From Oikopleura dioica (Eukaryota; Animalia; Chordata), in the NCBI GenBank assembly GCA_907165135.1, contig OU015566.1, forward strand, positions 12,958,001 through 13,022,000: a stretch of 64,000 nt of DNA, read 5' to 3'. The notes under the pieces were generated by a model. It had not been told where the DNA came from, ran no database searches, and worked only from the letters and a program-made list of their open reading frames with translations. Made by a program: the position numbers and the translations under genes. Positions 30,844 through 57,069 of the stretch are shown here, piece after piece. Numbering within the stretch: position 1 is the stretch's first letter; each line of letters begins with the position of its first letter.

Positions 30844-31558
30844 GAGGGCACCGTATTACTGTACATGTAATATTGTACAGTGGAAAATTGTATCACTGTA
30901 CTTGTATTAGTGTACAGTATCGTATCACTGTACTTTTCCCTGTGAACTCAAAAGTACAAACTTACAATGTACAGTGATACAATACTGTACACAAATACAA
31001 GTACAGTGATACAACAGCAAAAAATTTAAAATCGCGAATTTACGGGGCTAGGATTTTTTTTTTTTTAAAATTATTATTTAAAATTCAAATTTACAATATA
31101 TTTTTTTCATACAATTTTTATTTAATGCGCGCGGCGCGCGCAAATCCCTACTTTTTAATAATATAAATGAACTAAATTAAAAAAATACAATAAATTATAT
31201 ATAATTTCTTATACAATTTTTATTTAATGCGCGCGGCGCGCGCAAATCCCTACAATTTATATTCCCAAATTTAACAAAATATGGGGGGACTATATTTTGG
31301 TAGCTAGGGGCGGGGCGGGGGTAGATTACACAAGGGCTATTTAATGATGGCCTATATAGCGTTTTTCACGTTTTTTCCCAAAAGTGTGTTTTATTGTACT
31401 GCAAAAAAATAGAATTTATGCCCCAAATTCTAATAAAATAGGGGGACTATATTTTGGTAGCTAGGGGCGGGGCGGGGGTAGATTATACAAGGGCTATTTA
31501 ATGATGGCCTATATAGCGTTTTTCACGTTTTTCCAAAAGTATGTTCTTCCGTACTGCA
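30844..31558 (+). repeat. Left terminal inverted repeat (~715 bp, modular)
   Basis: Array of TACAAGTACAGTGATACAA motifs in both orientations (30850-31015); two ~100-bp AT-box+GCGCGCGGCGCGCGC units (31110, 31212); two ~185-bp units with GGGGACTATATTTTGGTAGCTAGGGGCGGGGCGGGGGTAGATT..GGCCTATATAGCG. Inverted match to 56332-57069. Confidence 0.92.
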
Positions 31559-31858
31559 GACAAAATAATAATTCCCACTTCTGACTTTCTAATAGCTATT
31601 TTTCTTTTCAATTCAACTGCAAAAATGCGATATTGTGTACTGCTGAAAATTTATTTTTTTCGTTTTAGACTAGACATGAAAGAGCAATTCTGCTGACAAA
31701 TGAAGAAAACTCGAAACAAAATTTGAAACACTTTCTATGATCTTCATAATGCTCGTTGATAATTAAAGTTCGGCCTTGGCAGAGGCTTTCGGTTCCTAGA
31801 GCAACAAATCCGATCACAAGAACTTGGTTTCTTTTGTTTATTCATTTATTCATTTTTA

Positions 31859-32408
31859 TCATTCAGGCTCATTCTCTGTCTGGCTTAAAAAGTCAGTTTC
31901 CGTAGATAACAGCACTCCACTTGTCTGCCTGAAGCGCCGTCCCATTCGCAAGTTTCTTAAACGAGATGTTATTGGTCCCCATTTCGCGCCTACCAATGAT
32001 TCATCCGATGCGTCCGGAGTCTCTTCGATCTCATAGGCTTCCAACTTCACACCTTGGCTTCCACTGTCAGTTTCCACCCGACCTTCGATTTTAATGTAGT
32101 CGCCAAACTATTTTTAGTTATAATTTGTAAATTGAACGTCTGATTACCTTGAACTCTTCGAGAAGTTCGTTTTTGCCAGTGACCTTGATTGTTTCTTCGC
32201 CATCAGTGACTACGATGGACTCGCCTCCACGTGCAATATCCCAGATCTTGCAGTACAGTATTGCAAGGTTGTCTTTGTGCTTAATAAATAGCTTAGCTTT
32301 CTCATTGAGTCTTTAATATTTTAAAATCGCCCAAATTACCTCTGCGATGTTCGCAGCGCACACAAGCTTTCGCTGCTGGAACTTCCACGATGGAATGTCA
32401 GGGAACAT
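31859..32408 (-). CDS. RPA3/RPA14-like single OB-fold ssDNA-binding protein (3 exons)
   Basis: Spliced MFPDIPSWKFQQRKLVCAANIAE-HKDNLAILYCKIWDIARGGESIVVTDGEETIKVTGKNELLEEFK-FGDYIKIEGRVETDSGSQGVKLEAYEI resembles RPA14 ([43 protein letters not shown]), alignment by eye. Confidence 0.6.
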
Positions 32409-32521
32409 TGATTGAAGATCGGCATCAGTGTTAGTCATTCTGAATATTTAATTTCAAGCGTTTTTTGTCGTCTTTCTGTTTTCAAATTTGAAGTACACGA
32501 GAAAAATTATCAGCGAAATTT

Positions 32522-33373
32522 TTACTTCTCTCTTTTTCGAAGTATTCGATGTAAGTGGCCATATCCAGGTTCGGCTGCCACCGCCAAAATTTTTGTCGAA
32601 TGACTAAGATTAATATTTTTAAATACTAGCTTTGTTTTTTTGTTTATACCTTCAGCGGTTCTTTTAATTGCAACAATCGGCTCATCTTTGTTCTCCGACG
32701 CAGCGATGACGATGTTTCCTTGGAAGATTTTTTCTGCTTGATCTTCAATTTCCATGGGCACACAGTTATGGACGTGTTGTTGTTCATGAAGCCCAGCTTC
32801 TTCCGGATCAAGGGGATACGCCGAATTGCAAAACGAAGGTGCTTCCTTTTTGCTTATCTTGAAGTTTTTCGTTACTTCTTTTTCGTCCGCAACAATGACT
32901 GCACTTGGACGGAAAATTTGAAGTGATTCAAGACCAACGCACGTCTCATTTGCGCAGCACATGAGCATTTGTTGCTTACTTAAAGAAGTTACTATCTTAA
33001 AGTCCTTTTTATTTGTGTTACCTCTGGATGTAAGCGAACGGTTTCAGAACGACCGTAAACTGATAGTTGGCGTCAGTATTTATCCATTTGCCATCAGCCG
33101 TTTCTTGGAGGTCGTAGCTGAATGCGCATCGTGGCTCCCAATCCATCGTGATCCAAGTTTCGCCCATAGACCGCTGGACATCAGGATTGATTTTGATAGT
33201 CGTAGCGAGCATTTTTTCTTTTGTGACCTAGAATTAATGGTTATTTATTTAATACAGTGATATTTTCATAGAAATTTTATATAAGGCGCGCTGCGCGCGC
33301 GATTGCGTTATCTTTTCGTTACCTTCTTCGTCTGGCGCTCCGAAACAACTGATTCGTTCTTAATTTTATCCAT
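32522..33373 (-). CDS. Orphan cargo protein (~235 aa, 3 exons)
   Basis: MDKIKNESVVSERQTKK|VTKEKMLATTIKINP..YIQS|KQQMLMCCANETC..RKREK*; in-frame GT-AG splices. Confidence 0.55.
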
Positions 33374-33420
33374 TTAAGTGTGCAATCAAACGACGTAGAA
33401 GGTGTTTTTTTTTTTCAGTT

Positions 33421-34138
33421 TCAAAGAATATAGTTTTCCAATTCGAGCATGATCACGCCCTGCAAATCGTCGAAATCCTGGGCATACTTTCGAAGCTCGG
33501 TAATTGGTCCATTCCGCGTCCCTTTATCTTTCCTTGGCTCCTAAAATTCTCTTCACTGTAAATGTATGACTGAGAGAAACGAAAAGGAGAATTTTTGCCA
33601 ATAGGTGCCTATCCTTGATCTTCTGTTTCAATTAATGCCGTAAGTCTGCTGGTCAACTCTTCCCCACTAGATAAATCTGTTAAATCGGCACTTATTTTCT
33701 GGTTATCTGATTACTTCAGCTTTTCTGCATTGACAAGCGATAGAAATACGTGAATATTCTGTCCAAGGCGTTGGATTTTTTTGCAGAGGATCTTCAGTTT
33801 CGACCACCAACCCTCTAAGAATATTAATATAGTTATTGAGGTTATCTTAAACTTTTGATTGTACTTACGGACAATATATTTAGCATCTTCAAGCTTCTTC
33901 TTTTCTTCATGGGTCATAAACTCGTTCTCGTTTTTGGTTTTGAGATGTTCTTTCGCCGAATGAACCGACTTAGCGAGTGAACATTTTTTTTTTCTCTCAG
34001 TCAATCACTTATTGAATTGAGTTCACTTTCCTCAACAACTTGTCGCATTCCGATCATGGCCGTTGACTCGGGCTCGAGTCGCGAAAGAATAAGCTTGGCA
34101 ACCACGAAACCTTCCACGTCTGGGTATGTTTCTGTCAT
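33421..34138 (-). CDS. Orphan cargo protein (multi-exon)
   Basis: Exons MTETYPDVEGFVVAKL.., KKCSLAKSVH..KFKI, GLVVETEDPLQ..CQCRKAE, EPRKDKG..ELENYIL*; splice sites partly uncertain. Confidence 0.4.
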
Positions 34139-34353
34139 AGTACTAAGAGATCAACCGCGCAAATCAGTTCTGAAAATAGGAAAGTCATTTTCTATTTTCT
34201 ATTTTTTCTTTCAACCGGTATCTTTCTATCTGTAAAGGAATTATAAGCAAGACTTGCTTATAAAATCCTTTAGATCCGTTCATAAGGGCAGTGTTACAGT
34301 TATCTTTCAACAATTCAAACGGGTTCTTTCTTGATCATAAATCGACGTTTCGA

Positions 34354-35303
34354 TTAATCCATTTCGAGTACGAAGTCAGCGATTTTGGTGGTTGTTTTCG
34401 TAAACGAGATGTGAATTTTTTCGTCGACAGTAACTGTTCCCTCCTCCGAATTTTTTGCTGCAGCGGAGAGCGACTCGGTCCACCTAAAATTTAAATTTAC
34501 TTGGTTTTATTTATCTATGCTATTTTACTTTTGATTCAATGAAAAGCTCGCATCCTTGATCGCTTTTCCATCTTTTGCGGTGATTGTCACGGATTTTACG
34601 GGTCTAGCTGGATTAAAAGTCCCGTCCAGAGCATTTCCAAGTGATTCCGAATTTGAAAAGCGGAGTTTTTGGTTACCAGAATCTACCGCGATCTTCAGGG
34701 GGAAAGCCACAGACGAAGGAAGTTGAAAGCAGTTGCTGTCGAGCTTGAATTCTCCGCTAAATACTAAGTTATCATTTTTTTTTTCTTTATGTTGCTTACG
34801 TTTGCTTTCCGTACGATGGCAGCTTGTCTTCCATTTTCACGAGAGTAAGCGGCGCCACGTGACAACTGACGAGGGCGCAAAGATTGTAATCTGCTACCAG
34901 CTCTCGTCGAAGAACCAAGTTGAAGTTCTTGTCAACAGTTACCTCCCATTTGAGGCAGCAGTGTTCACCTGATGCATTGACCGATTCGATAAGTTTCGGC
35001 GTTGAGACTGAAAGTGATTATCTTTTTATTCAATATAAAAAAAATATAAATACCTTTAACTGCGAACGTTTCGCAGCAAGTATACAGCTTGAACTGTGTC
35101 GCGTCGAGCTCGACACAAACACGATTCAAACCCGCTTCATCGCTTGTTTCGATTTTGATCCCACTTGGAGTGAAGATCATCTTAGTTTTGTACCCAATCT
35201 TCGCAATCGGTGCTAATTTTGTTCTTATTTCGACTGGTTTGTTGTAAGCAGCCAAAAACATCAGTCTAGAATAAGGAATTTCAGTCATCTTAGAGAGACT
35301 CAT
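34354..35303 (-). CDS. Divergent full-length PCNA-like sliding clamp (clamp 1; 4 exons)
   Basis: IFTPSGIKIETSDEAGLNRVCVELDATQFKLYTCCETFAVKV ~ PCNA [48 protein letters not shown] ~ VSDYEM; KLRFSNSESLGNA ~ GVKFSASGELGNG. All splices are canonical and in frame to TAA at 34354. Confidence 0.78.
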
Positions 35304-35312
35304 CGTGGATCA

Positions 35313-35968
35313 TCACAAAAGGCTTTCAAGGACATTCTGAGTGTGCACAGACGATGTAATCTCCACGACTGAAAGTTTATCGTGAAGCCTTAACAGTTTG
35401 TCAATTAGAGACGTGGCGTTATTTTTCTCCTCGAAAAGCTCAGCGAGTCGTTCAATCTTTGCTCCATCACTAGAAATTCGTCACTTTGATAAGTTTTCAT
35501 TTTAAAAAGTACGTTTTATCGCAACTCTACAGTTTAATTATTATTTCTCATACTATTTTTATTTAATGCGCGCTGCGCGCGCACTTTTACACTCAATTAG
35601 CCTATCTTTACCTTAATTGCTCGTGATGAATGAGAGACAGGAAGATGAGAAGGTTTTTCCCAAGCACGCTGGTCTCTGCACCAATTTCATCGATCTCCTT
35701 GGTGTACTTTTCTACTCTCTTTTTAGCAGCCATTTTTTCTGTCGTTAATCTTACCGAGCGAAGAAATTCCATTGTTAACTTTCTGGATGTACGAAGCTGG
35801 CTTAGATTCTGATTTCATTTGTTCAAACATTTCTTTCGCGCCTTCAATGTTGTTTTTCAAGTCTCTTCGCCTTTTAACGATATCGTTTCCGGCTGGCAAA
35901 AATTGTTTTACAATCTCGTTTGCAGTTTTCAGTCCGTCTGTCCAGTCGTATGCATTCACAGTGGCCAT
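35313..35968 (-). CDS. Orphan helical/coiled-coil cargo protein
   Basis: MATVNAYDWTDGLK.. ORF, further exons ..EIDEIGAETSVLGKNLLIF.. and ..IERLAELFEEK..ESLL*, ending 9 bp upstream of the clamp-1 ATG. Confidence 0.4.
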
Positions 35969-36331
35969 TCTGAAGATATACTCGATTATTTTTACTCAAG
36001 TTAAAATAGAAATAAAATTATCTTTTGAACTTTTGGAGTCAGATATGTGTGAAACCTTTTCAATGGCTTGCAAGTTTAAAGGTTTTCCCTTCTTTTTTTT
36101 TTCCTTTTACCGTAAAAAAAACGCACACAGTGAAAATAATAATGATCATTTGATCTTGAGGAACTTTTGGCCGAGGCAGTTGGGTGCTGAGCGTTAAGGT
36201 TTTTTTTTTTGAAAATTGCAAGCGTACAGTTTGTGCCTTTTCCGTTTATCTACCTAGGGAGTTTTTATTTCTCCGCCGTACTATAAATGAAAGAACACAA
36301 TTTAGTTTAGCTAGTGAGGAAAAAATTGGAA

Positions 36332-37072
36332 CTAATGAAGGTATGGGGTGCGGCAGACGGCGCAATATGTCCATCGCTCGATCCATCGCAATGCGCATGC
36401 TTTGTCAACCTTATGTGAGCAATTTTTGAATCGGATGAGTGGCTCCTTGAGTTCCATTTGACAAATTTGACAGATCTCTTCTTCCTGGATATTTTGAGGA
36501 GTCAAAGTGTCGCCAATCAGTCCTTCGAGCCGACCTTTGTATTCGTCCGAAGCGCGAAATTCAGCTCGCCAAAGATCGCCCAAGAGTCCTTCCATAGTTC
36601 GGCTTTCTGGATCGATTAGTGGAATATTTTGTGGATAGCTTGTTTGCGGTCGTTTGAGTTTGCTTTATTACACTCAAGCACGAAAAAGGCATATTTTTTT
36701 TTCAACTCAAAAGACCTTTCCTGTTCAATCCAAATGGATTGTTGATAATAGCTTCGTAGAAATGGTTGTAATTGCCATCATTTTGATTGTCCACCGTGCC
36801 GACAACATTCCGATCGTCGAGTTCTGGCCCTTTTCATGATTTAACAAGTCTTTTTTATGGCTAAGATCTGATAAAATTAAAAAAAAAAAGAATTCTATAT
36901 ATTGAAGTTTTGTCCTTCCTTGAAGTGGCTGTGTGGCGGTGGGCAACTCAGCAGGGTTACGAAGAACAGGTGGATCCTCTCCATGCACCTGTTGAGTGCC
37001 ATCTTCTTGATGATTCTGAGCGGGTCCATTTTCCGCCGGGATGTTTCGATTCAAGTCAAAATTATCACTCAT
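36332..37072 (-). CDS. C-terminal RING-finger protein (putative E3 ligase)
   Basis: CQICQMELKEPLIRFKNCSHKVDKACALRWIERWTYCAVCR (RING-H2-like, one ligand replaced by Asp); upstream exons from 37072. Confidence 0.7.
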
Positions 37073-37457: not shown

Positions 37458-39013
37458 TTATGCGTTCTCGTCGGATTCTCGTCGAGGTCGTTTTTTGTCG
37501 CGTCGGGTCTCACGGCTGTTCTCATCCGTTTTTTTTCCTGGCGAGCACCCGGCAGAGTTGTTCTTCTCAGATGGCTCGTATTCAATGTTGTTGTTCTCGT
37601 CAGGCTTTTCATTCTCTTGTTGAGCCTTTTCGTACGCACTCATCCCGGAGTTTCGATCATCATCGCTCTCGCCTTCTAGCAATGGAGTTTTTTCCCCCTC
37701 CTGCGGCTGTGGAGTCGAAGAAGCCGTCGCGTGAACACGAATGAAACGAGTTCGTAGTTGATCATCCCATTGATCATCGCCCATTTCACCATAACAGTGC
37801 ACATCTTCGCTTGGCAGCGGTTGGGTGAAAAGAGTGGTGACCTGAATTAGTGCATTAATTACTAAATGTATGTAATACGCCGTACCGATAGACCACGAAT
37901 GCTGATTTCAATTTTCAATGGGTTATTCGCCATATCGATTGTCATTTCGATTGCCATGTCGGCTTCTTCGTTGCGGCAATACTCAGCAAGCGCTTTCGCA
38001 TATTTACGCAGGCAACTTAACTTTTGTTTTAGTTTTCTAATCGGGAAAAAGAAGAGTAAAAATTCGAGATTATGAAATAGTTTTTCTTTCAAGAGAAGAA
38101 CAAACTTAAAAAATTATTGTACAAAATGATTACACGCGAGAATAAAAGCGCTGTGCAAAGAAAATTGATCTTTGCGCGTCTCACGGTTGCATTAATGATG
38201 TATTCCTATACAATTTTTTATTTAAGCGCGCAGCGCGCGCGAGACCCTTATATTAATTCAATGCTAAAATTGAAAGCTTGCTACCTTGTGATGATATTCG
38301 CATGCGTTGAAACTCCGTCAGGAATCACTTGCACAGCCGAGTCTCCATTTGAGGCGAAGACTTTCTTGATTCGCTGTCTGGAATTTCCATCCGACATGAA
38401 TTCGAGGTTCGAAGTAATCGGAAGAATTCTAATGGTCGTAATATCGCCGCCTTCAAAAGGAAGACGATAAATGAAATTATTAACCATAAAAACGCATACC
38501 TAAACCCATTTTTTCACTGGCAGCGCAGAAGCTATTCGCTGGCATGAGTACAAGTGGGTTCGCTGGGTCTGACATTAAAGCTGGTGGCTCGCGGACTTCT
38601 TTTGTTTTCAGATAGAAAACATCTCCGGCTTCACTATCGGTTACAGAAACACGAAGGAAGCCATCAAGTGTCTCGCCAAGAACCAGTTGCACAGACTTCT
38701 CTCCTTCGTTCGCCACGAAGCCAATGAGTTTTTTAAGGTCGACTAAATTTCGTTATTTATTCTGTCTTAGTTTTCCCCTTTTAGAGAGAGAACCGGGCTT
38801 ACCTGAGAAAGAACGAATGATGAAGTTGGTGTTCTCATAGTTGAGGAGTCGGTCCTGGTGGTAGATGAGGTAACAGGCGGCGTACCTGTCTTCCTCGAAG
38901 CCAACAAAATGGAGAGAATCATGCGTCGCCATGATGTTAAGTGTATCACTTGTGCTTTCCATCAATAAAAGAGCACGATGAAATTGATGGGCACTTGGAA
39001 TGAACGCGTTCAT
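37458..39013 (-). CDS. Divergent sliding-clamp subunit with acidic disordered tail (Rad9/PCNA-like; clamp 2)
   Basis: FHRALLLMESTSDTLNIMATHDSLHFVGFEEDRYAACYLIYHQDRLLNY ~ clamp N-domain (Rad9 [26 protein letters not shown]); VLMPANSFCAASEKMG ~ PCNA [42 protein letters not shown] ~ clamp C-domain; splices in frame to the tail exon 37458-37846. Confidence 0.62.
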
Positions 39014-39107
39014 GTCTGAACTTTAAAATAGTTAATTTTCTGTTACTTGAGCTGTTTTTCTCTGTTGTTTTGAACAGATCAGCATTTTCACAATTTCTTC
39101 ATGTCTG

Positions 39108-39560: not shown

Positions 39561-39621
39561 TTTCAAGTGAGTCGTGAATCAGACAAACAATCAGATCTGA
39601 ATATTAAAAAGATGAGAAGCA

Positions 39622-41707
39622 TTAGGACGAGTAAGAAGCTTTTTTGTAGCGCTGCAAAAGAATTGTCTGAAACAGATGGACGAATTTTTCACATAGCGCT
39701 TCGGTTTTTCTGAGGTTGAAAACTGTCGGGAAACCCTTTAGGTCCAATTCCGTTGTCAGCAGGGGGTCGAAAACAACCGCGACTTAAAAAAAAAAATATA
39801 TGAGTACTTCTCGTTTCCAATGATAATTACTTACTGGCTCCTGTATCCTGGTGGACGCTAAAGGGCATTCTCAATAAATGCTTATGATTGGTAAGCACTG
39901 GCTTATCTAATTTCGGATAGAGATGTCGAAGTTTGATAACGCGCAGTGAATTTTTGTCAAGCTGGTCGTTGTTCTTTAGTCGTTGTTCGATCACATTCCA
40001 TTTCTGGTCCGTCGTCTTTTGTTCCATAATCTTTTCGACCAGACTTCTCTTGACAGACTCAGTCAGCGCTGTAAAGCTTAGCAATTTCATTATTCTTTCT
40101 TGAAGCTCCAGGAGGCCTTAATTTTCATTCAAATGAAGTTCAGAGAAAGCGATGCTCACCTTGTTTACATAAAAAGTCCACCCAAACTGTGTCGATAATT
40201 TCCTCCGCTTTTCTTAATGACGTGTGGTACAAATTGCCGTTTCCATAGTACATTCCTTCGATGTTGATATATCCGAATAACGCTCTGCGATTGTACTCAT
40301 CGGATTTTATGTATTCTTCGTCGAGGATCCAGCAATGAATGCCTTTTTTCCCGCTGAATACTTAAAAAGATTATATTGATTTTGCATGCAATACTATATT
40401 TAACGCGGCAGCGCCGCGAAATGAAAAAGGATGTAAAAGAACTTACCCCAGAAAAAATGCTTGAAACCGAAATCTTTTCGAAGGATTCTGTCCAATATTT
40501 TTGCCGCGGTTCGAAGAATAACCCAGCAACTGGAGCAAATCGTATCTTCTTTACAGCACGTCTTATATGTATATGAGCTGATATCGATGTCAAGCGTGAA
40601 CTGAACAAATATGAGTGGATAAAAGCCATAAGAAATCATTTATTCTTCTGCTTATTTTAGTTTCCCCCTTTTTTGTTCCCCTAAATTTGGCTTCTAGAAC
40701 GCAAAGAGTGGCAATTGTTTTCGTTTTACATCAGCAAAAAAGATGTTTTTGTTTTTTCAACGATCAACAAATTCTAGAATTTGATGAAGATACGAAACCA
40801 GTGCCATTTTGATAGATTTTACTGTTTTTTCTGAAATATTTCGATTAATATCGTTTAAATAGATTTCTCTTTTTTAAATAAAGGTGAAGAACTCCTCAAT
40901 TTTGTATCCTATGAGAAAGAAAATGAGTTCTGTCATTAATTTCCCCGTAAAAAAACAAAATTCCGAATTTAAAGCAAAAAATTTTAACCTTGTACGGAGT
41001 TTTTACTCTTTATTTTTAGATTATATGTTCAATCGACGTCATCTCCGGTTAATATAGAAATTTTAAAATAATCGAACCGTTGAAATTCTCAAAAACTCAC
41101 TTTTCCCGAACATTTTGAGAAGAACTGAATATTACGTAGTAATTCTAGATTCTAGAACAAAAAATGTTTTTTTTTTTTTACGTTTAACCTACCTCACGCG
41201 CCAAGAATTCATCTATGTGGATATTTCGATATTTGCCCGATGGCTTATAACATCCTCCAAGGTCGACTCTTATCGGGCGCTTCTTTCGAAGATAATCGAA
41301 GAATTTCGGCTCATCGCGGAAGATGTTTTCGTTCCGCCTCACAATACCACTTCGGTCCTTGAAACTTATGAGCCTTTTTAGCAAAGAAATTTTATCAAAA
41401 CTTACAATATATCTCTCTGGCCGATTCTAAACGTTTCGCCGCACGTAATGAACAGTGCGAGCTCATCCACTGGGCAGTGAAAGAGGTAGTATTCTTCAAG
41501 CTCCCTATCATTCGGCTCTTTTGGGCGATTGCATGCTCGTATTCCACTACTATCCTGCGAAGAGTGTTCTTTTTCGGTTGTCTTGCTATTAAAAAAGTCG
41601 TTTATTTCGGAAAAAATGCATTCGTTGATATACCTTTTGAACTTTTTTCTAAATTCTTGCGCAAGACCTCCTTTCTTCTCGCAAATTTTGTTTACAGCTG
41701 TTTCTGG
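39622..41707 (-). CDS. Archaeo-eukaryotic DNA primase small (catalytic) subunit, PRIM1-like
   Basis: LEEYYLFHCP, RPIRVDLGGCY, E|FTLDIDISSY..CCKEDTICSSCW (motif I DxD + Zn site), [21 protein letters not shown] (motif II), LYPKLD..HLLRMPFSVHQDTG (motif III); colinear with PRIM1 over the whole length. The start is uncertain (may be fused to clamp 3, up to 42564). Confidence 0.92.
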
Positions 41708-41729: not shown

Positions 41730-42564
41730 GCTGTATTCTTATCGTCCTTTGAGCTTGGAGGCGGCGTTCCAGGTACCCTGAAGGGAGAATCTGTTTTTTC
41801 TTGGCGACTTGGCGAGGTGATTACATTGACGACAACGTTCTTGTTATTCGTCCCTTTTGGTTCTTCGTCGTCGCTATTGGGGTATAATTGAATACTGCAG
41901 TGATTTTCTACTAACCTTTCACCTGAAATCACTATGATGTCTGCATCGACGGTCAGACCAATTTTGTCCATTTCTTTTGCGAGAAACTCGTCATTAAAAA
42001 CGTGGAACTCGCGCTGCACTCCTCTGCTTGCGGGACGATCGTTGTCCATGCAACTAAGCACGGCTGTTAAACAGAAAAAAAAAACACAGCGAAATTAAAT
42101 TAATTTACCGTTCTAATTTTTGTTTCACAGTAGGAACAACCGGGGGCACAATAGAAGCACAGCGTTTAGGAATTTGAAGCTCTGTTTCTTGATTTTTTCC
42201 GATCGTCCTTATCATTACTTTTCCGTTTAAACTGTCTGCAGCAGTCAATTGGAGTTCTTCTTCGACGTCGCTGACTCTAAGGAACTTCCAGAAAGAATCG
42301 GCGGGCACTAGTAATTTTTTTAATGATGGGCCTTTCTAATTCACTCAATAACTTACGAATTACTGAATCTCCGATATTGTTTATAGCATAGCTTTTCATC
42401 ATGTCTTCACAAAAGAAAAATTTTCTTTCAATGTCATTTCCGCAGAGCTCATAAAGGTACAGCCCTTCATTGTGGAAAATTAGCAGGATATCGCAGTCCT
42501 CTATAATAGAGGATTCATGAGAGCCTACAAACTGAGCTATGCTTCGAAAAGCGGCGAAACTCAT
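41730..42564 (-). CDS. Third sliding-clamp-like gene (clamp 3), possibly fused to PriS
   Basis: DILLIFHNEGLYLYELCGNDIERKFFFCEDMMKSY (clamp N-domain pattern); FNDEFLAKEMDKIGLTVDADIIVISGE ~ PCNA [37 protein letters not shown] ~ GNGNIKLSQTSNVDKEE. One junction needs a non-GT donor. Confidence 0.45.
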
Positions 42565-42690
42565 GTCTTTAAAATAAGAAAATTATTTTTTTAATCTATA
42601 GGAACTATCAAGTTTTTCGCAAAAAAAAAATAAAAAAGAAAATAAAAACAGAGGGGCAGTGAACTCTCGCAGACTACATTTTACATCGTT

Positions 42691-43720
42691 TTAGTCGAGA
42701 TTGATTGTCTTCTTTCCCTTAAAAGGGGGTTAGATTACAGAGTGATGTTTAAGATTTACCTCGGAGATACATCGGGAAGATGGGCCCGGTCTATTGATGT
42801 CCTCTGCTTGAGTTTCTTCGTCAGTTGACTATAATTTTATTAGAACAGGCCCCTCTTGCTTTAAGTTTTTTGCTTTTCTCGGTTCATAAATACAAGTACA
42901 GTGATACAATACTGTACACTGATACAAGTACAGTGATACAATGGCGAAATTTTAAATCCAGATTAAATAAGATGTTTAACGCTTTTACCTGCGAGTAGCT
43001 GAGAGAAGTGTGGTCTCGAGCACCCATAGAGCGGGTCCATGGCCGGTTGGTAGTTTGAGAGCCAGTCTTATTTATCGTGTAAATATGTGATATTACATGA
43101 AGATCATACCTGATCGTTACCGCCTTCTTTTTGCTCCGCAATCTTCTTGGTTTTCGTCGTTCGAGTGTGATCTGTGACCGGGAGAACACTGTTGATCGTG
43201 GGCTGGTCGCTTGGTCTGAATTCTCGTTTATGGACGAGGAAAACGACTGACAGAAATAACACGAACGCATACCTCTTCCCTCGACCGGCAGCAGGTTTGC
43301 TTGTCAAATCGCGGATTCGCTTACGGAGTTGTTTGTTCTCCATCTCGAGGAAGCTGATGCGTCCAAGTTTTTGAGAAAACTCACTCTGTAGCCCTTAATG
43401 GGAATTATTCAGTATAAATCGCATTTTTATTTGTTCTTACCTTTCACGAGATCGTTCGCGTCTTTGTGCCATGGCAGCGACACATAATCTGCCTAGATAT
43501 AGATAAATTCGATAGTCAATGTATCAGAACTTACAAAATACGCTGCCTTGCGACAGAATGCGCACTTGATCTTGGCTTCTCTTGCTTTGCGGCATTTTTT
43601 CAAGCATTCACCGCAAAAAATTGCACCGCAGCCAGCGCACATCTTGGGATCCTTCACCGCGAAGTGAGTTGGAACCAGGCTACAATCTAAGGCAGCTTGC
43701 AGGGATGAAAACGCTTCCAT
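42691..43720 (-). CDS. RING + coiled-coil + transmembrane protein (putative membrane-anchored E3 ligase)
   Basis: LDCSLVP..CAGCGAIFCGECLKKC..KCAFCR spliced in frame (TTT|gtaagt..tag|GCA) to a heptad coil LEMENKQLRKRIRDL and TM YAFVLFLSVVFLV; further small exons end at TAA 42691. Confidence 0.65.
42886..42970 (+). repeat. Internal relic of the element's TIR (left-end orientation) inside an intron
   Basis: TACAAGTACAGTGATACAATACTGTACACTGATACAAGTACAGTGATACAATGGCGAAATTTTAAATC matches rc of 56850-56925; a weaker relic lies at 44937-44970. Confidence 0.8.
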
Positions 43721-44142
43721 TTTGAATCCGTGAAACGTTGTCGGCGGAAATCAGCTCTCTTTTTCCTGCTTTTGATTGGTTTGAAAAATCACGAGTGAGA
43801 AGTAAAAAGTCTCTCTCGATAACCTTGTTCATCTCTCGGCTCGAAATAACGACGCTTTCGGGATTGGAGTTGCAAAGTATTTTTGGCCCGAAACTACACT
43901 CACAACCATATTTTTTTTCTCTGATTTTCTAACTACTACACTCATAACTAGTTCTCATTACTACACCGCTTTTTCTAGATCAAATAAAAAGACATTTGTT
44001 TTTTTTTTACAGAAAGGTTTTATTTTGCAGCCACTTTGTGAGAAAAGGGCGCAAGAAAGATTTCTCAGACTTGACAGGAATTTACAGCTGGAAAAAAAAG
44101 ATGGTGTTGTTTCACAGCGTAAAAGTCGGTCGTTGGAGCTTT

Positions 44143-44810
44143 TTATGAAGTCCAATTCTTTCCTCGGATCTCCAATTTGCGTCCAGAAGAGCTCTGAATC
44201 ACAACGAGACATCGTTCGTTCACCAGGTCCTCGTAGAACTTTGTCGCGGGGGTGGTGTGACGAGCGATGATCCGTTCCAGGTCGGTCGCGACGCGTTCTC
44301 GGTCTTGTGGAGAGAGACCTGCGGTGAGACGCAAGAAGTACTCATCCTCTAAACAATTCGATTGATTTCGGGAACAAATAAAAAGATATAATAGGAATTA
44401 CCTGCAAAGCGGAGAGCACCACGGTTGTCGAGCTTCTCGCCATTTGGTGCGATGAAGCCAGGTTGCTGCGCAGCTGGCTCACCCTTTTTCTTCTCCTTGC
44501 CCTTGCCCTTGCCCATCCAACCTCGTGGAAGTTCGGCTGGGGGGGCTTGAAGTTGGTCAGCGCACCGTCGAAGGTCAGAAGCAGCTTTCAAAAGCGCGTT
44601 CTTCAGGGTGGTCGTTTTAGCGGCCGCGTTCTATAGACAAATTTAGTCCAAGGGGAATCAGACAATGCCACATGGGCGCTATCTTTGCAAAAAAAAAAAA
44701 AAGAAATGATTGATTACCTGGGAAACCATTTTTCGAAGTTTTGATCTTATCTCTGTTCTGAGAAAATCTAACTGAGCTGAAGGGACGCAAATGCCCAGAC
44801 GTCGAGCAAT
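44143..44810 (-). CDS. Orphan cargo exons (may be the 3' end of the repeat protein)
   Basis: NIARRLGICVP..KMVSQ|NAAAKTTTLKNALLKAASDL..LRFA|..LRLTAGLSPQDRERVA..KNWTS*. Confidence 0.4.
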
Positions 44811-45118
44811 GTTCTAGAGACTTTTTCATTAGCGAAGAAAAAGAATGCACTTTTTTTTTTATTTTGTTGGTTTCGAGACAAACAATTCTAGAAAAATTAA
44901 ATAAGCTCGATTTCTTAATTCTACGGTCAACCACTCAAGAGTACACAAATACGAATACACTGATACAAAGTCACACTAACCGAAAATTTCTAAAGATCAA
45001 TTTTTACAAAATGGGACACTTTCCCTGATAAGTTTCCTTATCAGTTGTTTGATTTTAATAAGAAGATTATTTATTACTGAAAAATATGAACTTTCAGACA
45101 AATAAAACAAGAAATAAC

Positions 45119-47580: not shown

Positions 47581-48116
47581 GGACTAAATGAGAATGAGGA
47601 AAAGAATGCTTATCATTTATTTTTAATTTGCATAGCATTATAACTCGAAATATAAAACGAATTTGCGCGCGCAGCGCGCACTCGATAAAAATTGTATAAG
47701 AAGTTATAGTGGATAGATAAATAATATTTTTAAATCCACTACGGAAAAGTGCTTAGGGACTTTATATCTTGCTCAACATCAATAGAGAATTTAACTCAAA
47801 AAACACAAATTAACAATCAAAAAGAAATAATTATGGTTTTCTTTATCTTAGCCTCTGGACTTGGGAACTTACTCGAGTGGTCATAGAATGACCAGTTGAG
47901 ACGATTGGGGCCATGACGTAAAGAAAGTGTCGCGCCTAAGCTGCGGATGAAAAAATTTATGAATTGACTCGTTTGAAATTGAGTCAAACACAAATGAATC
48001 CAGTTTTTTGCGAGGGGCACTCGTAGAGCCATCCTGAGCATCATTCTAGAGAATATTAGTGTGTATTTTCAAAAAAAAATAAATAAAAACAAACACATGA
48101 TCTAGAATTTTTTTTT

Positions 48117-48701: not shown

Positions 48702-51700
48702 TTTTTTCTTGCTGACCTTCGTAAAATAGGAACAGGCTTTGTGTCACATTTTTTTCCCGAAGTACTGTTGGCCCCGGCGTCGCCAGTCGGAGATTTATCA
48801 TCTTTCATACCTTCCATCTGTCGAAGATCTCGGTAATGCGCCTTCTTCGAGCGAGTTCTTGCGGGGGAAGGATCATACTTGTCAGAAGTATATGCCGGCA
48901 ACGACGAGAGAGAAGATCGCGGGGTCGACTATGAATAATGCTCCACAAACACAAAAATAAATCAGAACACTTACATTTTGATTCTTGCCACCGCCCGATC
49001 CGTTCTTGGCTGCTTCTTCCGCCTGAACTAAGCAAGCATTGTTTGCCCCGGCGTTGTCAGTTGGAGATTCATCATCTTTCATACCTTCGAGCTGTCGAAG
49101 CTCTTGGTTATGCGCCGTCTTCGAGCGAGTTCTTGCGGGGGAAGGATCATACTTGTCAGAAGTCTTGCCAGAGCCTGATCCGTTCTTGGTTGCTTCTTCC
49201 GACTGAACAACTTCTTGCTGCTAAAATAACATTTAAAACAATTCAAGAAGATCACATTACAATGGAAACTTACATTTTGAAGAGCTGGAGCTTCTGTTTC
49301 ATCGTGAGATACAGCGGTAAAATCATTAGCGACTTTGTTTTCCCGCTGTCCATCATCATCTGCGGTCAGACCACGCAAACGGGCACGTCCTTCACGCAGG
49401 TACTCTTCCATGGCTTTCTTTTTCTTGATATAATGATCAAGCTTTTCCTCACCCTCTTTTAGAATCGTATTAGGAGAGGAAGCGCGGTCTTTCTCCGAAG
49501 TATCCACTTTCTTTTTGGGCGTCCTTTTTCTTCAGAACTCTACCTTCCTTTGCGGCCTTCTCTTCTCGAGCTTTCCTTTTCTTTTCCAGGCGTTCGTGTT
49601 CAGCAAGCTTCTTCTTATTATCCCTCTCGTCATCTCTAAGAGTTTGAGCCGCTTCTCTTTCCAATCTCTCTCGTTCCAAGCATTGTTCCATTGTAGGCTC
49701 AGGTCGACCTTTATCGAGGCATTTCAGGGCAGCCCTCACGTCTTTCACAGTTTCATTTTGATTGGAATCCGTAGGCAAAGTCTTCTCGATGTCTCGAATC
49801 TGACGGATACAATCAATTTCCGACATTTTAAGGCTATAAGAGCCGGGAACAATATCATCAAGTCGAACGTTCTTCTGGGGCACATACTTAAAATACATTT
49901 ATTTAGATACTTTGAATAACAATCAATGTTACCTGGGTTTTTCGGAGCGACGCATTTTCGCGTTTCCGACGATTAAACTCATGAGAAGCAAGATCGGATT
50001 TGTTGACCAATTCAAGCGCGGTATTAAAGCCTTGATTATCTGGATTTTGTCGATCAAAAGGCTAGACAATTTTCAAAAATAGAAATAAGAGCCAAACAAA
50101 CCTTTCGTAAATCAGTGCTAGCAGGCGAAGAAAGAAAAGGTATCTTCGAGGGCAAAATACCAGCAGCGGGATCGTGAAGCGTTGGTGATGGTGGTGCATT
50201 ACCCATTGAGAAGTTATCTTCTTCAGCATCGAAACATTCCAGGTCCTATATATTGTACTGTAAAGAAAAAAAGAAAAAAAAAATACCGTATCTTCCAATC
50301 TCAGTTGAGACTGATTCAAATATTCATATCCAGGGAGATATTCAGATGATTCTAGATCCTAAGAATCATAAATAAACATATTAATCATGAAAGTAAATAC
50401 CGGATCAGTTTGTCTCAACTGAGAAAGATTCAAATAGCCGCCGGATGAATCATGCTTGGAGGAGTAAGATTGAGAACTAGTTTCATCACTCTATCCAAAA
50501 ATGACGTGATTTATTTTTTTTTTATTTAACGGAAAAAAACAACTAACACCCTACCTTCTGCATCGTTGAAGGTGCATCGTTTGTAAAAAGATGTTCCATG
50601 GGGGCGGGATGAGTCATTGATTTCTTCGTCGATTCAATGACGACGCAAGGATCGCCCACCGAACCAGTTGAAAGATTCTGATGATGCTTAGACTTCTTTG
50701 AAATCTGTGCATGCTTAGCAATCTGATGGGAAATTCCAGTTCGCCCAGAGTCGGCATTCTCTCGCGTCTTTGACTTCGGCGTCTGCAAAGTCTTCACACG
50801 AGGATCATCCACCGAATCGGATGATACATTCTGATGATCCTTTGACTTCTCAGAAGGACCAGTAGAAGCAGGCATTGGTGCTTTGGAAGTTTTGAACTTG
50901 GAAGGACCATCAGACGAAGTAGTGACGCGTGAATTAGAGGTCTTGGCAGGCTGAGTATTTCGGTTTGTGGTGTTTACAGCTGGAGTTCCCATCGCCTTTG
51001 GATCTTTTTTTTGTATGGCGCTCGTCCCGCTGGTGTTAGGTGCTTCAGTACGATCATCAGCAATATTTTTCGCGCGACGAGATTGGCTTTTCGTGCGCCG
51101 TCGAAAATTATATCGGCTAGCATCTTGATCAGTTTGGGACGAGAACATTTGATTCCAGTCGTTAATATTACTCGCAATTGAACGAGCCATCTCTTCTTGA
51201 GCAGGAATCGTAACATTGGGCACAGTCATTTCAGGATCTTGGTCAATCTCAAAATTCAACACAGGCTCGTTAATTTGCATTCGAACGTTGCCATCACCAT
51301 CACGAAGAAACTCAGAACCAATCACAACTTCGTCGTTAATCTCTTCTTGAAACTCGTTTTCTTCTTCTTTCTCGTCGTAGTCGGGCTCGATTGGGCCAGG
51401 GAGTTGCACGCTTGGATCGTGTCTATTCGCCTCGTTCTGGATATGTTCGCTCGCGGCCCCTACGAACTTCGGAGGAAGAGGAATATCCAAATTTTTCTTG
51501 AGTAAATTCATTACACGTGCACGACGGAACAAATGACGCAAATCTTTATTAATTGTCTTCTTGGACGTTCGCTTAAAAGAATGGTAATAACATAATTTCA
51601 AGTAAAAAACAATACCAAAAATTCATCGGCGCAGTTGAGGAGAAATTGATGGAAAATTTCGGGCTCCACTTTGCCGTTTTCAGGCACCTGCTCGCACAAG

Positions 51701-54700
51701 AGAAGATTCCTCTCGATAAAAGCGTCGTGAACAGTCGTGTCGTAAAGGCTGGTTCTCTCGTTGTGCGCCATCAAGTATTCTCGAGTCTTTCTCTCCATAA
51801 ACGAGTGCAGAAGCTTCAAATCAGTATCGAAACTAGCAGTAGACTAAAGCAGAAATAAGTTTAGATAGAACCCCAAGATTTACCCTGTAGAAAGACTTGC
51901 GGTACTCATTCGCAAGGCTAGAGTGAAGAACTTCGGAAGGATTGGTCGAGAGTACTACTGGAAACTGTCCAAGAAGCCGGTACTTTAGCAGCGGATAAGA
52001 ACTGAATCTTGTTCCCCAAATGGTCACGAGGACCTTTCGAACAAATGACATTAGGTACAATTTGATCCTATTGCCATAGTTTGGAGTGGGCAAAAGCACA
52101 GCGGCGAGATGAACAATCATTGAAACAACAATGTCCGGACGAATCATGGTCTAATAAATCAACTTGATTCAATAACAAAGGAAGAAAAACTTACTGTAGA
52201 CGCGATAAAAAATACCATGAATCGAATCTCTGTACAGGCCTGGCGCAGATGAAATTTGGATTTAAGACATCGGAAGATCGCTCTAAAAGTTATTATGTTA
52301 AAAGGGGAAAATGGCAAAAATAATGTACCTGATAATGTGCACTATGCATAATACACTGATAGACCGAATACCATAGACCGACATTGCTGACTCCCAGCCT
52401 TTAATGAGCGAGGTCTCCGAGTCCGATTGCATGATACACTCCTGAAAAATGTGGCCGGGATGCAAGGTAGCTAGAATTCGGTAGAAGCTGGCGAATGCTT
52501 GTTTGTAGTGGTCGGAATGCTAAATCAAATTGCTCGCGCTGCTCGCTTGTATATTAATTGTATGTGATATAATATAACACTAATAGCAAATTAATTGTTT
52601 ACCTGGGAGATTTGGTATATTGCGCCAAGCATCTCCAGCTCCTCTCCTTTCGTCAAGCTGGACACATAACCCTGGACAGTCGTCAACTGAGCAAATCCTC
52701 CTCCAGGGGTAAAAGTTCCGTCAAGCATGATGCGAAACAGGGACTTCTGTGGGATGCGCTTCAAAAGGGAGATACTGCCAACTAAACAAAAAAAAAATCA
52801 TATAATAAGTGAATCCAACGCAGCCAAATACCTATAAGGCAGCATTCATCCCGATAGAGAACCCATCGGTCTTTTATTTCAGTCCCATTGATATGGAAAC
52901 TCAAATTTGAAAGCGCCCTTGGGATCATTTCGTGGTCGGGATCTCGATTCTCGAGCTGCTTACCAGGTCGACGCTCGTTGTAATATCTTATGATAAAAAT
53001 AAAAATGCATGTCTAACTTAAAATCTCATATTACCTGGCGAACAACTTTCTTGCGTAATGAGATCGAGGATGAGCCGGGGACCATGAACCGTATCTTTCT
53101 TTCACCACTTTTTCGTAAGCTTCCACGCAGCGTGAATTAACCAAATTGTCACCATCAGCAGCAGCGCCACGGATAAATTCCTCAAATGTTTTTTCGGCGA
53201 TGTCCATGTAACCAAATGGAGTGCAGCAATGGCTAACTGTCGGCGAGTCACAAAACGCATAGTTCTAAAAGAAAGTGTCAATACAGAAAATAGTCGGATA
53301 AAATTACCCTGTAACAAGCTGGAGCTTCGGGGCGTGCATAACAGAAGAAATCTTTCCAGTACTCCTTTTTAATTTTATATTTGCCGTCCTTGTCTTCGTA
53401 AAGGATATCCTCGCAATGGATAAAAAATCGCTGTTTACCACTACAGTACGGCCGGTTGCATGTGTAATAGGCATAGAAAAGACCAAAAACCCTAAAAAAT
53501 AAGGTATTTAGCGCAGGGACTCAGGAATAATCTCACGTTTTTCTTATCTCCAGTAATCGCATGGGAAAGACAACAACCGGCCCAAGATGGTTGGTTATAG
53601 GAGCGTTGGCAAGAAGGTGCAAGTCGTAACTATTAAAAATGAATCACTACCGTTAAACAGATTATTACCGAACCAAAGCTGCTGGATTTTTTTTCGTTGA
53701 AATGTAGGCCAGCAGAACGGACACCGCACAATCGCCAGGAATATCGAAATACGTTCTTCGATCAACGATGTACTCCAGACCGTAATGAGCAGAAAACTGA
53801 CAAAAGTCAAATTGCTTCGGGTCGCCAATTGGACATACATCGATGGGAACCGGAATGAAAAACGAATTCATAACACGATGGCCATCATCGCCGACTTCGG
53901 CATCGTATAAATTCGTGTTTCTTTCAATTCCACCGTTATCATTCTCGTCATCGGACAAAGGCGAAGGAATATCAGCGAAAGAAGGCCCGGCAGATGAAGC
54001 ACTAGAACGAGTACCACCATTCGCAGGAGGAGGAGGAAGACGAGGATCATCGGAAAAGGGCGCCTTCTGACCTCGCTTGTCTTCAAAGTGGACAGACTTC
54101 GATGCAGTTTTAACTGGGCGCCCAGGCTCATTTATTCGTTTGTCACTCTTTTTATTCGCTCCATCTGCTCGTGACGGCTTGTTTTTGTCAACAAAAGTTT
54201 TTTTCTTTGGCACAACCTTCGGACGGACGTTCTTTTTTCTAGGGGGGATGTTTTCATTCTCGTCAACATCGCGAGGATTCTTTTCTTTCTTTTTCCGTTG
54301 GCCAGAATCGTCTCTTTGAGAGGTGTTGATACCAAACTGGCTTACCATTGGCATCCGTTCCTCCAACCGTCTCTGACTTTGAGTGATGCTGGGCCTAGCA
54401 GTTTTTGCATCATATTCCTTAGGTGACTTCGTGGCGTCAGCTGCGCTTACAGAGCCTGTATTGTGAGTATTGGTAGTGGGCGCATTGTTAGAACTTTGCG
54501 TGACATCCTTAAAATTAAAAATAAAAAAAAAAAAACGAATTCCAACAAGTAATTATTACCGAAAGAATGGGATGACGCGAACTAAGCTCCTCAAATGAGC
54601 TGTCGCCAGAAGAATCATCAACATTGGAAGGGGTATCGCTAGAAGGTGGGCAAGAGACGTTGGACGCTTTTTTGTTCCTTTTTGGTTTTATCTTCCGCTG

Positions 54701-56044
54701 AAAGAAAGAAAAATGAACTTGATATTGTAAACTAAATTACCTTTTTATGGAGCGTTAATTGAGAAGCAGCCTTCTTTAATTGTTCGTCGGAAACAATCCC
54801 ATTTTGATTTCCAATAACTAACATAGAGTATTGCAACTCTTTTCTATCGTCCGACTTCTTCTGAGAAGGGGTTCGCTCGTCCCCACTGTCAGTTGAAAAA
54901 AGAGGCCCAGAATTATCAGATGAAGATTGGGATTCCTGAAATTAAATTAAAAGAAGCAAATGTAAAAATTCAACCTGAAAAAGCGAAAACATTTGTGGCC
55001 TTTCATCTCGGCGAGACGACGGGGATGCAGCAGTTTTCGTGGACTGACTATCCCGGTCGTTTCTCGGGGAAAACGGTTCAACTGTAGCAATGGGACGAGA
55101 AGATTGACTATCACCCGACGGCCTTCGAGTAGGAGGAAAAACTGCTTGGGAAGGGGCAGTAGATTGTCCTTCGCCTTCGTGAATCGGTTTCGAGCCAGCA
55201 GATGTTCCAACGGACAAGTCCGAAGTTGGTCGCACGCCAGACGTAGAAGTTTTGGGAGACGAACGCATAGAAACGGCAACATCGTTCCCAGAGGCATTGA
55301 TACGAGCAGATACTGCTTTACCATCGGGCGAATGGAACACTTCTTTCGTCTGCGAAACTTTCTTAATCTGAAGAGCCGGCACATCATCAGACGGATAAAA
55401 TTTATCATTTTGAAGTATTTGATTGGCTGTAGTTTCACAGCCCGCCTTCTCGAAATACGAATCGTCAACACCCAACATAGGGTTCTTTGCCTTCCGCCGA
55501 GCACGGATGATCTTCTTCGGGCCGGAAGTCTCTGTCACTTTGCCATGGTGGCTAAGCCAGTTCAAGTGCCGCTGTTGTTCAGGCAATACTTTCTCCAGGC
55601 TTGAAGGTTTGTTGAGAACATCGTTGAAGCGAGTAGAATCACGCAAACGTTCCGCGTAAGAAACATGATCGTGACGGCGAAAGATACTAGAATCCTTGGA
55701 AAAAAATTAACTTGCGACCTGTCAAAATAGAATACCTCAGTTCGATACGATTCGTGAAATTGACGCGCGAACGGGGCAAGTGATGCATTACTCACACCAC
55801 TTCCAAGAGACAGAGGAATCGGCGTTGATGACTTAGAACGAGTGTCAACATGGTCGGCCGTAACATTTGACGAGGCAGAAGACGCGGCCTATAAATATGA
55901 GCTCAAAAATGACGGATTATTTGTAATAAATCCCTTGCACAAAACTTCAAAATATTAAACACAAACCTCATTTCTAGAACGGCCGTCTTCTCTTTGTTTC
56001 CGCCTTTCAGCAGCAAGCTTTATAATTTTATCTCGAGCACTCAT
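48698..56044 (-). CDS. Very large multi-exon MULE (Mutator) DDE transposase with long disordered N- and C-terminal extensions
   Basis: Zn-finger-like YYTCNRPYC..H.C (53.2-53.5 kb); MLDGTF (52711-52722), FAQLTTVQG, MQSDSE (~52420), CIVH (CxxH, ~52345), STNPSEVLHSSLAN (~51935). In-frame splices join these to ORF 50543-51601 and onward to 48698, and upstream to ORFs 53665-54366 and 54942-55646. Distal exons are less certain. Confidence 0.85.
48772..49208. repeat. Two-copy ~274-bp tandem duplication in the transposase C-terminal exons
   Basis: TCTTCGAGCGAGTTCTTGCGGGGGAAGGATCATACTTGTCAGAAGT at ~48844 and ~49119; encodes TSDKYDPSPARTRSK..GMKDD.SPT..AGAN twice. Confidence 0.85.
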
Positions 56045-56331
56045 GAAAAAGTCATGATTTTCCCCGGACAAAAAAGAAAGAAGTAGTAAGTTCTTTAGCC
56101 AGCCAATGAGAGAGGCGGAGCAAACGCGCGGGCGGTTTGAAAAAAAAAGGAAATGAAAAGATTACTCATGCAAGTACATACACAGCCTGGCATATAATTC
56201 ACAGCTACTGCCATAGATATAAACTATCTGACAAACGTTGTAAGTACCATGCATGTGGGCCGTCATTATGTACCCCTATTCTTCTTCTAGTTTCCGCTAG
56301 TATTATGCGGCAGAAATTCAACTTTTTCTTT

Positions 56332-57069
56332 GCAGTACAATTAAACGCACATTCGAGAAAAAACGTAAAAAACGCTATATAGGCCATCATTAAATTGCCC
56401 TTGTGTAATCTACCCCCGCCCCGCCCCTAGCTACCAAAATATAGTCCCCCTATTTTATTAGATTTTGGGGCATCAATTCTTGTTTTTTATTTCGCAGTAC
56501 AATAAAACACACTTTTGGGAAAAAACATGAAAAACGCTATATAGGCCATCATTAAATAGCCCTTGTGTAATCTACCCCCGCCCCGCCCCTAGCTACCAAA
56601 ATATAGTCCCCCCATATTTTGTTAAATTTGGGAATATAAATTGTAGGGATTTGCGCGCGCCGCGCGCATTAAATAAAAATTGTATAAGAAATTATATATA
56701 ATTTATTGTATTTTTTTAATTTAGTTCATTAATATTATTAAAAAATAGGGATTTGCGCGCGCCGCGCGCATTATATAAAAATTGTATAAAAAATAAAATA
56801 TATTTTTAAAAAAAAAATAGAAATAAAATTTATTCTAGCCCTATTAAATCTTGATTTAAAATTTCGCCATTGTATCACTGTACTTGTATTAGTGTACAGC
56901 ATTGTATCACTGTACTTGTATTAGTGAAGACAAAAAAATTGTGTTCACTATTACAAGTACAGTAAAACAGAAGTACAGTGATACAATAACGTCGAAAGTA
57001 CACTAATACAAGTACAGTGATACAATTTTCCACTGTACACAAATACAAGTACAGTAATACGGGGTACTC
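56332..57069 (-). repeat. Right terminal inverted repeat (~740 bp, modular)
   Basis: Reverse complement of 30844-31558 with the same three modules; inner modules nearly identical, terminal array more diverged. Confidence 0.92.

Follow-up and report, generated by a model that had tools for sequence, protein, structure and literature searches.

Introduction

Foldback-type Mutator-like elements (MULEs) such as Muta1 of Aedes are described as having long terminal inverted repeats (TIRs), an 8-bp target-site duplication (TSD), a DDE transposase with CxxH and W residues and tandem subterminal repeats at their tips (PMC5499845), all of which recur in the element analysed here. Arthropod MULEs are reported at 1.4-10 kb (PMC13359780), as compared with 26 kb for this element. 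This element occupies positions 30844..57069 (26,226 bp, termini GAG...CTC) of a 64,000-nt window of the Oikopleura dioica genome (GenBank assembly GCA_907165135.1, contig OU015566.1, positions 12,958,001 to 13,022,000 of the forward strand); the window is the whole stretch of DNA analysed, and all coordinates refer to it. The element was found to contain ten copies (eight strong, two degenerate) of a TIR-derived 43-bp motif consisting of a T-rich box followed by a GC dyad, in addition to genes for a primase small subunit and a putative sliding clamp. As a tentative reading, to which we accord somewhat less than an even chance, the motif may be a single-strand hairpin site at which the primase and clamp of the element act while it is copied from both ends to the centre.

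It has long been asked how MULEs increase in copy number without net excision. The archaeo-eukaryotic primase (AEP) RepB' is described as priming at 40-nt hairpin sites on opposite strands (PMC8567376), and a review of giant transposons considers that a primase could permit much larger elements, the sections available offering no MULE example (PMC6431247). The main text of the O. dioica genome paper, which leaves 44% of repeats unclassified, contains neither 'Mutator' nor 'MULE' (PMC8008620). No published description of the element was found in the open main-text literature, although supplementary repeat libraries might list its family.

Motif copies and their polarity

A consensus scan allowing 0-4 substitutions returned eight motif copies, at 31110, 31212, 33269, 35551 and 38209 on the plus strand and at 47696, 56684 and 56786 on the minus strand (Table 1). 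This result bears out a preliminary description of the same DNA in placing two copies, 102 bp apart, in each TIR. That description had also listed six internal copies under a written consensus; four of these fit it, whereas those at 40391 (+) and 52575 (-; given earlier as ~52530) fall outside it and were recovered by gapped alignment. In an ungapped matrix, the latter two copies score at the null level (-0.8 and -0.2, respectively; shuffled maxima averaging 2.0). Their gapped scores of 15.0 and 17.5 exceed the shuffled maxima (6.5-13.5, with 0/40 shuffles reaching 15) as well as the best gapped score outside the element (11), and both were therefore accepted as motif copies. The ~38 kb of the window outside the element, used as the background control, yielded no copy in either the matrix or the gapped scan. 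An Rfam search gave no match.

Each of the six internal copies points inward from the nearer end of the element, and the orientation flips around the midpoint (43956.5), as had been proposed for position ~43957. The probability of this arrangement is 1/64 (0.016) with the midpoint set beforehand, 1/16 for the four strong internal copies alone and 7/64 with a free switch point. On the left arm, successive copies are separated by 2057, 2282, 2658 and 2178 nt, a regularity (coefficient of variation 0.11) that is rarely attained by random introns (P 0.0014).

Constraint on the dyad and its predicted hairpin

Comparison of the four strong internal copies with the TIR revealed that the dyad was kept at 56/56 positions, as against 77/96 in the T-rich box, 33/80 upstream and 37/100 downstream (Fisher ~1e-4). 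None of the six internal copies shares with the TIR the single base that separates the half-dyads. The dyad is predicted to fold in single-stranded DNA (ssDNA) as a 6-7-bp hairpin with a 3-nt loop. Among the seven distinct copies folded, six give inward-strand energies between -8.3 and -10.2 kcal/mol.

The two degenerate copies have changed in different ways. In the 40391 copy both arms are altered and the full stem is retained, with two pairs changed on both sides in a slid register; the chance of the stem being kept is 0.007 for two random changes per arm. The case for covariation rests on this copy, since both-sided changes appear only in its slid register. In the 52575 copy, the same C-to-A change is present in both halves, which breaks the duplex dyad symmetry and gives G.A mismatches on the inward strand and T.C mismatches on the other. 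Tandem G.A pairs are stable in DNA. A literature search gave no direct source for this stability, and PMC13037366 lends support to single sheared G.A pairs in mini-hairpins only.

These observations bear on the main alternative, which we consider doubtful, namely that the transposase or some other protein encoded by the element binds the motif as duplex DNA and thereby loops or compacts the element so that its ends meet, or maintains VANC-like open chromatin. Such a site would be in keeping with the paired copies in each TIR and with an invariant dyad surrounding a free central base; moreover, the VANDAL21 protein is reported to bind co-oriented motifs in introns, intergenic DNA and terminal non-coding DNA (PMC5735166), and transposition efficiency is stated to drop with long cargo (PMC6431247). 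However, one degenerate copy has retained an inverted and the other a direct symmetry, a difference not easily reconciled with one binder of double-stranded DNA, and VANC motifs form 9-bp tandem arrays rather than single 43-bp copies ~2.3 kb apart. Binding alone would also not explain the strand-bias switch reported below. In addition, the different tandem repeat at the TIR tips fits the Muta1 transposase-site model better (PMC5499845), and the transposase-binding role earlier suggested for the motif is better assigned to those repeats on this precedent. The open reading frame (ORF) near 48 kb, previously put forward as a binder, appears a weak candidate, as its Pfam match is below cutoff and its region is an intron in the public gene model.

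Intron context of the internal copies

Gene models were predicted ab initio for the minus strand of the element, to which the ORF scans were likewise confined, and they assign ~66% of the element to coding sequence. All six internal copies lie within introns of these models, in agreement with the earlier prediction, and two of the introns are backed independently: the exons flanking the 40391 copy match contiguous portions of the Pfam DNA_primase_S profile (1-46 and 47-91), and the intron holding the 52575 copy (52602-52520) is identical in the public gene model P0001. The 47696 copy is intronic in both the ab initio model and P0001, which place the boundaries differently, and it could be intergenic or located in a 5' intron. 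For the 33269, 35551 and 38209 copies, support for an intron comes from the ab initio models alone. RNA data, which comprised one partial read from each of two runs over 30600-36800 and none on the host flank, were uninformative on expression or splicing.

The motif introns measure 83, 86, 87, 95, 269 and 578 nt in the models, whereas the remaining 70 introns have a median of 47.5 nt (P 1.8e-4 for six introns of at least 80 nt each); the median intron in O. dioica is given as 48-51 nt (PMC8008620). Four of the six (83-95 nt) have about the length of an ordinary intron with a single motif added, and it is therefore probable that introns already present received the motif by insertion. The non-coding position itself says little, because surviving insertions in an element with this coding density would be expected there.

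The same introns are relevant to the proposal, in our judgement unlikely, that the internal copies are neutral TIR debris generated by template switching during end-to-centre repair, with polarity being a consequence of the way they were copied and the dyad being kept by quasi-palindrome self-correction. Intron lengths that equal a normal intron plus a motif would suit this proposal, as would the decay of two copies and the presence of another TIR block, also intronic and in left-end orientation, at 42874 (96 bp, ~90% identical to the right TIR); the bias switch would then support polarised synthesis without any function of the motif. It is less readily understood why the same sharp-edged core of ~43 bp was kept six times from a 700-bp TIR, why the dyad is unchanged throughout the strong internal copies and why the left-arm spacing is so even. 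Nested growth, in which old ends are left inside a growing element, was rejected, as copies sit within the primase gene and the DDE core.

A strand-bias switch near the centre

Base composition was shown to change between the two arms of the element. The plus-strand A/T skew amounts to -0.13 in short introns of the left arm and to +0.33 in those of the right arm (p 2e-13), and at four-fold sites it is -0.00 and +0.37, respectively. Considered individually, 20/29 informative left introns contain more T than A, and 21/24 right introns contain more A than T (p 6e-5). By segment, intron bias ranges from -0.11 to -0.45 in the six outer-left segments, from -0.05 to +0.19 in the four inner-left segments and from +0.26 to +0.49 in the five segments of the right arm; the host baseline is approximately +0.05 (sense T-A, from rough models of six flanking host genes). 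Change points were located at 44041 (non-coding sites), 44550 (four-fold sites) and 45080 (pooled), compared with a midpoint of 43956; intron sites alone placed the change at 42069, with a wide range.

The A/T switch occurs despite the location of all modelled genes on the minus strand, and the inward strand is T-enriched in introns on both arms. Enrichment in T is the direction expected from single-strand deamination. A host-replicated insertion of changing orientation would not be expected to yield a mirror-image bias, which suggests, from base composition, that copying of the element often proceeded inward from the two ends or else outward from the centre. The resemblance to replichore-polarised sites noted in the preliminary description gains independent support from this central change in A/T bias, seen at both intron and four-fold sites. 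The skew switch, the even spacing, the hairpin constraint and the TIR-derived block at 42874 are additions to that description. Conversely, the role of the internal copies as bidirectional origins, raised in the same description, is disfavoured, because forks from each site would erase an arm-wide bias. That the motif is instead a captured host-factor site (origin, insulator or transcription-factor site), with forks moving inward from TIR origins, is improbable: the TIRs carry four G-rich tracts on the inward strand, and origins at both TIRs would likewise produce a central skew switch, but the motif is missing from the 38-kb host flank and internal bidirectional origins would blur the bias of each arm.

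Primase and clamp genes

Eukaryotic primase small subunit (PriS) sequences were firmly identified in an intact-looking gene, as Pfam PF01896 is matched above cutoff in three exons, a PDB primase is matched at E 3e-5 and 310 aa align to an intronless PriS at E 2.5e-19. The available matches also support the presence of one PCNA-family clamp gene (PCNA match at E 0.003, a value inflated by the triple-repeat construct used). Two further candidate clamp-fold subunits were recognised by eye alone (Table 1); similarity between the first and second clamp sequences was not significant, and single-exon structure models gave no significant fold match, with PCNA chains recurring at E 0.5-1.5 only. The clamp-like half-domain upstream of PriS is apparently in frame with it via a disordered linker (42567-39693, -), making the two an unconfirmed candidate for a clamp-primase fusion.

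Pfam was searched with 150 of the 155 minus-strand ORFs of at least 42 aa, five alternative frames over a repeat-containing gene being left out. RING-type zinc-finger genes were noted at 36332-36664 and 43496-43720 (-), the first above the Pfam cutoff and the second weak. The two leftmost small genes (31859-33358, -) resemble RPA OB folds when read by eye, a resemblance not confirmed by PDB searches (no match or chance matches), and one of them has a CxxxxC/CxxH-like zinc motif.

A proposed model for end-to-centre copying

In the mechanism that we favour, cut-and-paste excision would leave a 26-kb donor gap in a host that lacks canonical end joining, the loss of which has been described for O. 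dioica (PMC11067885). With the sister chromatid as template, synthesis would then run inward from both broken ends, and the newly made inward strand would be extruded in single-stranded form, allowing hairpins to form on it about every 2.3 kb. Beside each hairpin, the primase, together with the clamp, would start the second strand through the pyrimidine-rich tract and toward the nearer end, and the donor copy would be restored at full length with a net gain in copies. The inward polarity, the spacing, the constraint on the hairpin, the excess of T on the inward strand and the cargo could all be accounted for by this one model, which we hold as a possibility falling short of even odds and whose steps beyond the sequence anatomy are inferred. 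The fuller proposition, that a cut-and-paste MULE re-synthesises itself with its own primase, a 9-1-1/PCNA-like clamp set, an RPA-like protein and mirror-polarised hairpin sites about every 2.3 kb, is held with greater doubt. Among the three roles suggested for the motif in the preliminary description, that of primase or clamp loading site appears the best-supported from the sequence.

A number of points weigh against this mechanism. The evidence derives from one element, of which no second full copy was retrieved. Eukaryotic PriS requires PriL, and none of PriL, a polymerase, a helicase or a capsid protein was detected by Pfam in the 150 ORFs; nor is site specificity known for eukaryotic PriS. 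A boundary between genes lies at the bias switch, and essentially three genes make up the right arm, so that a different origin or expression of genes could mimic the switch. Furthermore, left-arm four-fold sites are flat rather than reversed, the inner-left introns are near zero, and G/C skew is weak with no clear change point. Spacing is less regular beyond the left arm, with right-arm gaps of 4.1 and 4.9 kb and a central gap of 7.3 kb (P only 0.06 over the whole element), and no further hidden motif copies were found near 42.6, 45, 50 and 54.6 kb. As to the hairpin, the strong copies are symmetric, such that both strands fold alike; the standard folding model assigns just -2.7 kcal/mol to the 52575 copy; both-sided pair changes in the 40391 copy number zero in the originally named register; and paired changes can arise by quasi-palindrome correction.

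Element anatomy and transposase

Assignment of the element to the MULE superfamily follows from its structure. The 8-bp TSD, TTAAAAAC, is present on both sides and lies within the 8-10 bp of MULEs, and the modular TIRs of ~700 bp exceed 100 bp and are 98% identical across a 307-bp core. When the element is removed in silico, the joined flanks read open for at least 87 codons through the insertion site. MULE transposases are described as having a DDE triad, (C/D)xxH 15-45 aa past the second D and a W before the E (PMC5499845). A 60-aa exon query was 100% identical to the public O. dioica gene model P0001, in which this layout was read by eye as LDGTF, DSETSL, CIVH 25 aa later and W ~27 aa before SEVLH. 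Pfam gave no MULE-domain match for P0001 or the minus-strand exon ORFs of the element, and database searches with the transposase returned P0001 itself and four repetitive proteins taken as chance matches, with no relatives. Judged by its sequence, the transposase is a highly diverged protein. P0001 fuses the transposase to a gene with seven 84-bp tandem repeats (45119-47135, -), which encode an N-x-S/T-rich, glycine-rich 28-aa unit.

The 157-bp TIR repeats contain four G-quadruplex-like tracts, at 31283 and 31441 (+) and at 56613 and 56450 (-); every one of them is on the inward strand, with a TATA-like palindrome after it. A second internal copy of the tip repeat is located at 44941-44969 (+); with this copy and the block at 42874-42969 included, a spacing of ~2.1-2.8 kb runs from 31.2 to 47.7 kb. 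The host gene that holds the element (26900-30843 and 57070-61000, +) belongs to a multi-copy family, and the left host flank is covered by many variant contigs in sequencing-run data. Small inverted-repeat pairs, possibly miniature inverted-repeat transposable elements (MITEs), were observed outside the element at 27221-27781 (145-bp arms) and 63087-63282 (78-bp arms).

Table 1. Coordinates and basis of features identified in and around the element
Feature	Position	Strand	Basis or remark
Left TSD, TTAAAAAC	30836..30843	+	Flanks element
Left TIR	30844..31560	+	Array of 16-32-bp repeats at the tip; motif present twice; G-rich tracts in two 157-bp repeats
Motif, left TIR 1	31103..31145	+	Consensus and gapped scan
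Motif, left TIR 2	31205..31247	+	Consensus and gapped scan
Internal motif	33263..33304	+	Predicted 85-95-nt intron
Second clamp-fold gene candidate, 257 aa	34354..35261	-	By eye; fold searches without significant match
Internal motif	35544..35586	+	Predicted 85-87-nt intron
PCNA/9-1-1-family clamp, acidic tail	37458..39013	-	Atlas 0.94 to PCNA_N clusters
Internal motif	38202..38244	+	Predicted ~245-270-nt intron of PCNA-family clamp gene
PriS	39693..41600	-	DxD, SGxKGxH and RxPxS motifs in spliced model
Degenerate internal motif (40391 copy)	40380..40421	+	Primase intron; perfect 6-bp stem via paired changes
Clamp half-domain candidate, upstream of or fused to PriS	42109..42567	-	p 0.028 versus supported clamp; no Atlas match
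Tip-repeat block in intron	42874..42969	+	96 bp, ~90% identical to right TIR, left-end orientation
Interval with A/T strand-bias change point	43974..45109	.	Change-point analysis
Internal motif (47696 copy)	47661..47703	-	Long intron or intergenic gap
Mutator-type transposase	48717..56044	-	LDGTF / DSETSL / CxxH / W / E; public gene model P0001
Degenerate internal motif (52575 copy)	52529..52569	-	Intron within transposase DDE core; same C-to-A in both halves
Right TIR	56330..57069	-	Anatomy as in left TIR
Motif, right TIR 2	56649..56691	-	Consensus and gapped scan
Motif, right TIR 1	56751..56793	-	Consensus and gapped scan
Right TSD, TTAAAAAC	57070..57077	+	Flanks element

Possible relatives in sequencing data

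Contigs of one DNA run and of a marine metagenome from another study, compared over 30600-36800, were found to contain variants of the TIR and, with loose ends, short stretches of the internal genes, on the basis of which the element is apparently a member of a small family. At 32404 and 36021, run X1 shows loose ends of 255 nt, which may come from diverged versions of the cargo genes present in that DNA sample. A scan for the exact motif gave no such stretch in metagenome contigs and one in viral contigs, the latter being a chance match in GC-rich DNA. From 313 pattern matches, a scan with PriS exons yielded two loci, both intronless unrelated primases without a motif, clamp or transposase match, and a separate PriS exon search gave no match. 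Intronless eukaryotic-type PriS genes at loci L002 and L003 (9329-11080) lie in gene-dense metagenome contigs, possibly of giant-virus DNA, and are unrelated to the element.

Discussion

The element bears on how very large DNA transposons move and copy without internal deletion, and it constitutes a testable case in which a defined 43-bp site and a candidate enzyme occur in the same element, together with a mutational footprint pointing to end-to-centre synthesis. If the proposed mechanism is true, it would represent site-directed priming by a eukaryotic-type primase and a new route past the size limit of DNA transposons. The element may also be relevant to rearrangement in O. dioica, given the loss of canonical end joining in this host. 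In the literature searched, no chromosomal transposon with a strand-bias switch of its own, and possibly with site-directed priming by a eukaryotic primase, was found.

In introners, whole introns are alike from end to end and the repeat supplies the splice sites; an introner origin was rejected here, as likeness is limited to an internal 43-bp core that occurs in both orientations relative to the transcript. KOPS and Chi are replichore-polarised motifs, the orientation of which switches together with base skew, and in the element, too, the two change over together. The element differs from these systems in its 26-kb scale, its few long sites and the lack of a translocase or helicase detected among minus-strand ORFs.

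Polintons/Mavericks encode a protein-primed PolB and a retroviral-like integrase and generate a 6-bp TSD. Like these elements and Teratorn, the present element is large, TIR-bound and equipped with replication genes (PMC6431247). Membership of the Polintons/Mavericks was nevertheless rejected, given the 8-bp TSD and the lack of a match to a protein-primed polymerase or a retroviral integrase among the minus-strand ORFs searched. These ORFs also gave no capsid or herpesvirus genes, and the transposase is of the Mutator type.

The VANDAL/VANC system of Arabidopsis likewise involves a MULE with an element-specific motif that is located in introns and other non-coding DNA and is locally co-oriented (PMC5735166). 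VANC motifs are, however, described as dense 9-bp tandem arrays in a system that counters DNA methylation, whereas the motif described here occurs as single 43-bp copies ~2.3 kb apart, mirrored about the centre. A VANC-like domain was not matched by Pfam in the 150 minus-strand exon ORFs searched, single exons being insensitive queries. Compared with Muta1-type MULEs, the element adds many intron-containing cargo genes, including those for the primase and clamp, and polarised internal sites derived from its TIRs.

With respect to the favoured mechanism, RepB' priming at ssiA/ssiB is the closest working analogue, by resemblance only. The ssiA/ssiB sites of RSF1010 and the origin of phage G4 are described as single-strand hairpin sites of ~40 nt on opposite strands, with the cognate primase encoded in the replicon (PMC8567376, PMC13037366). 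Those plasmid and phage origins have a single site on each strand, whereas the O. dioica element, a chromosomal transposon, presents five predicted sites per arm and a eukaryotic PriS.

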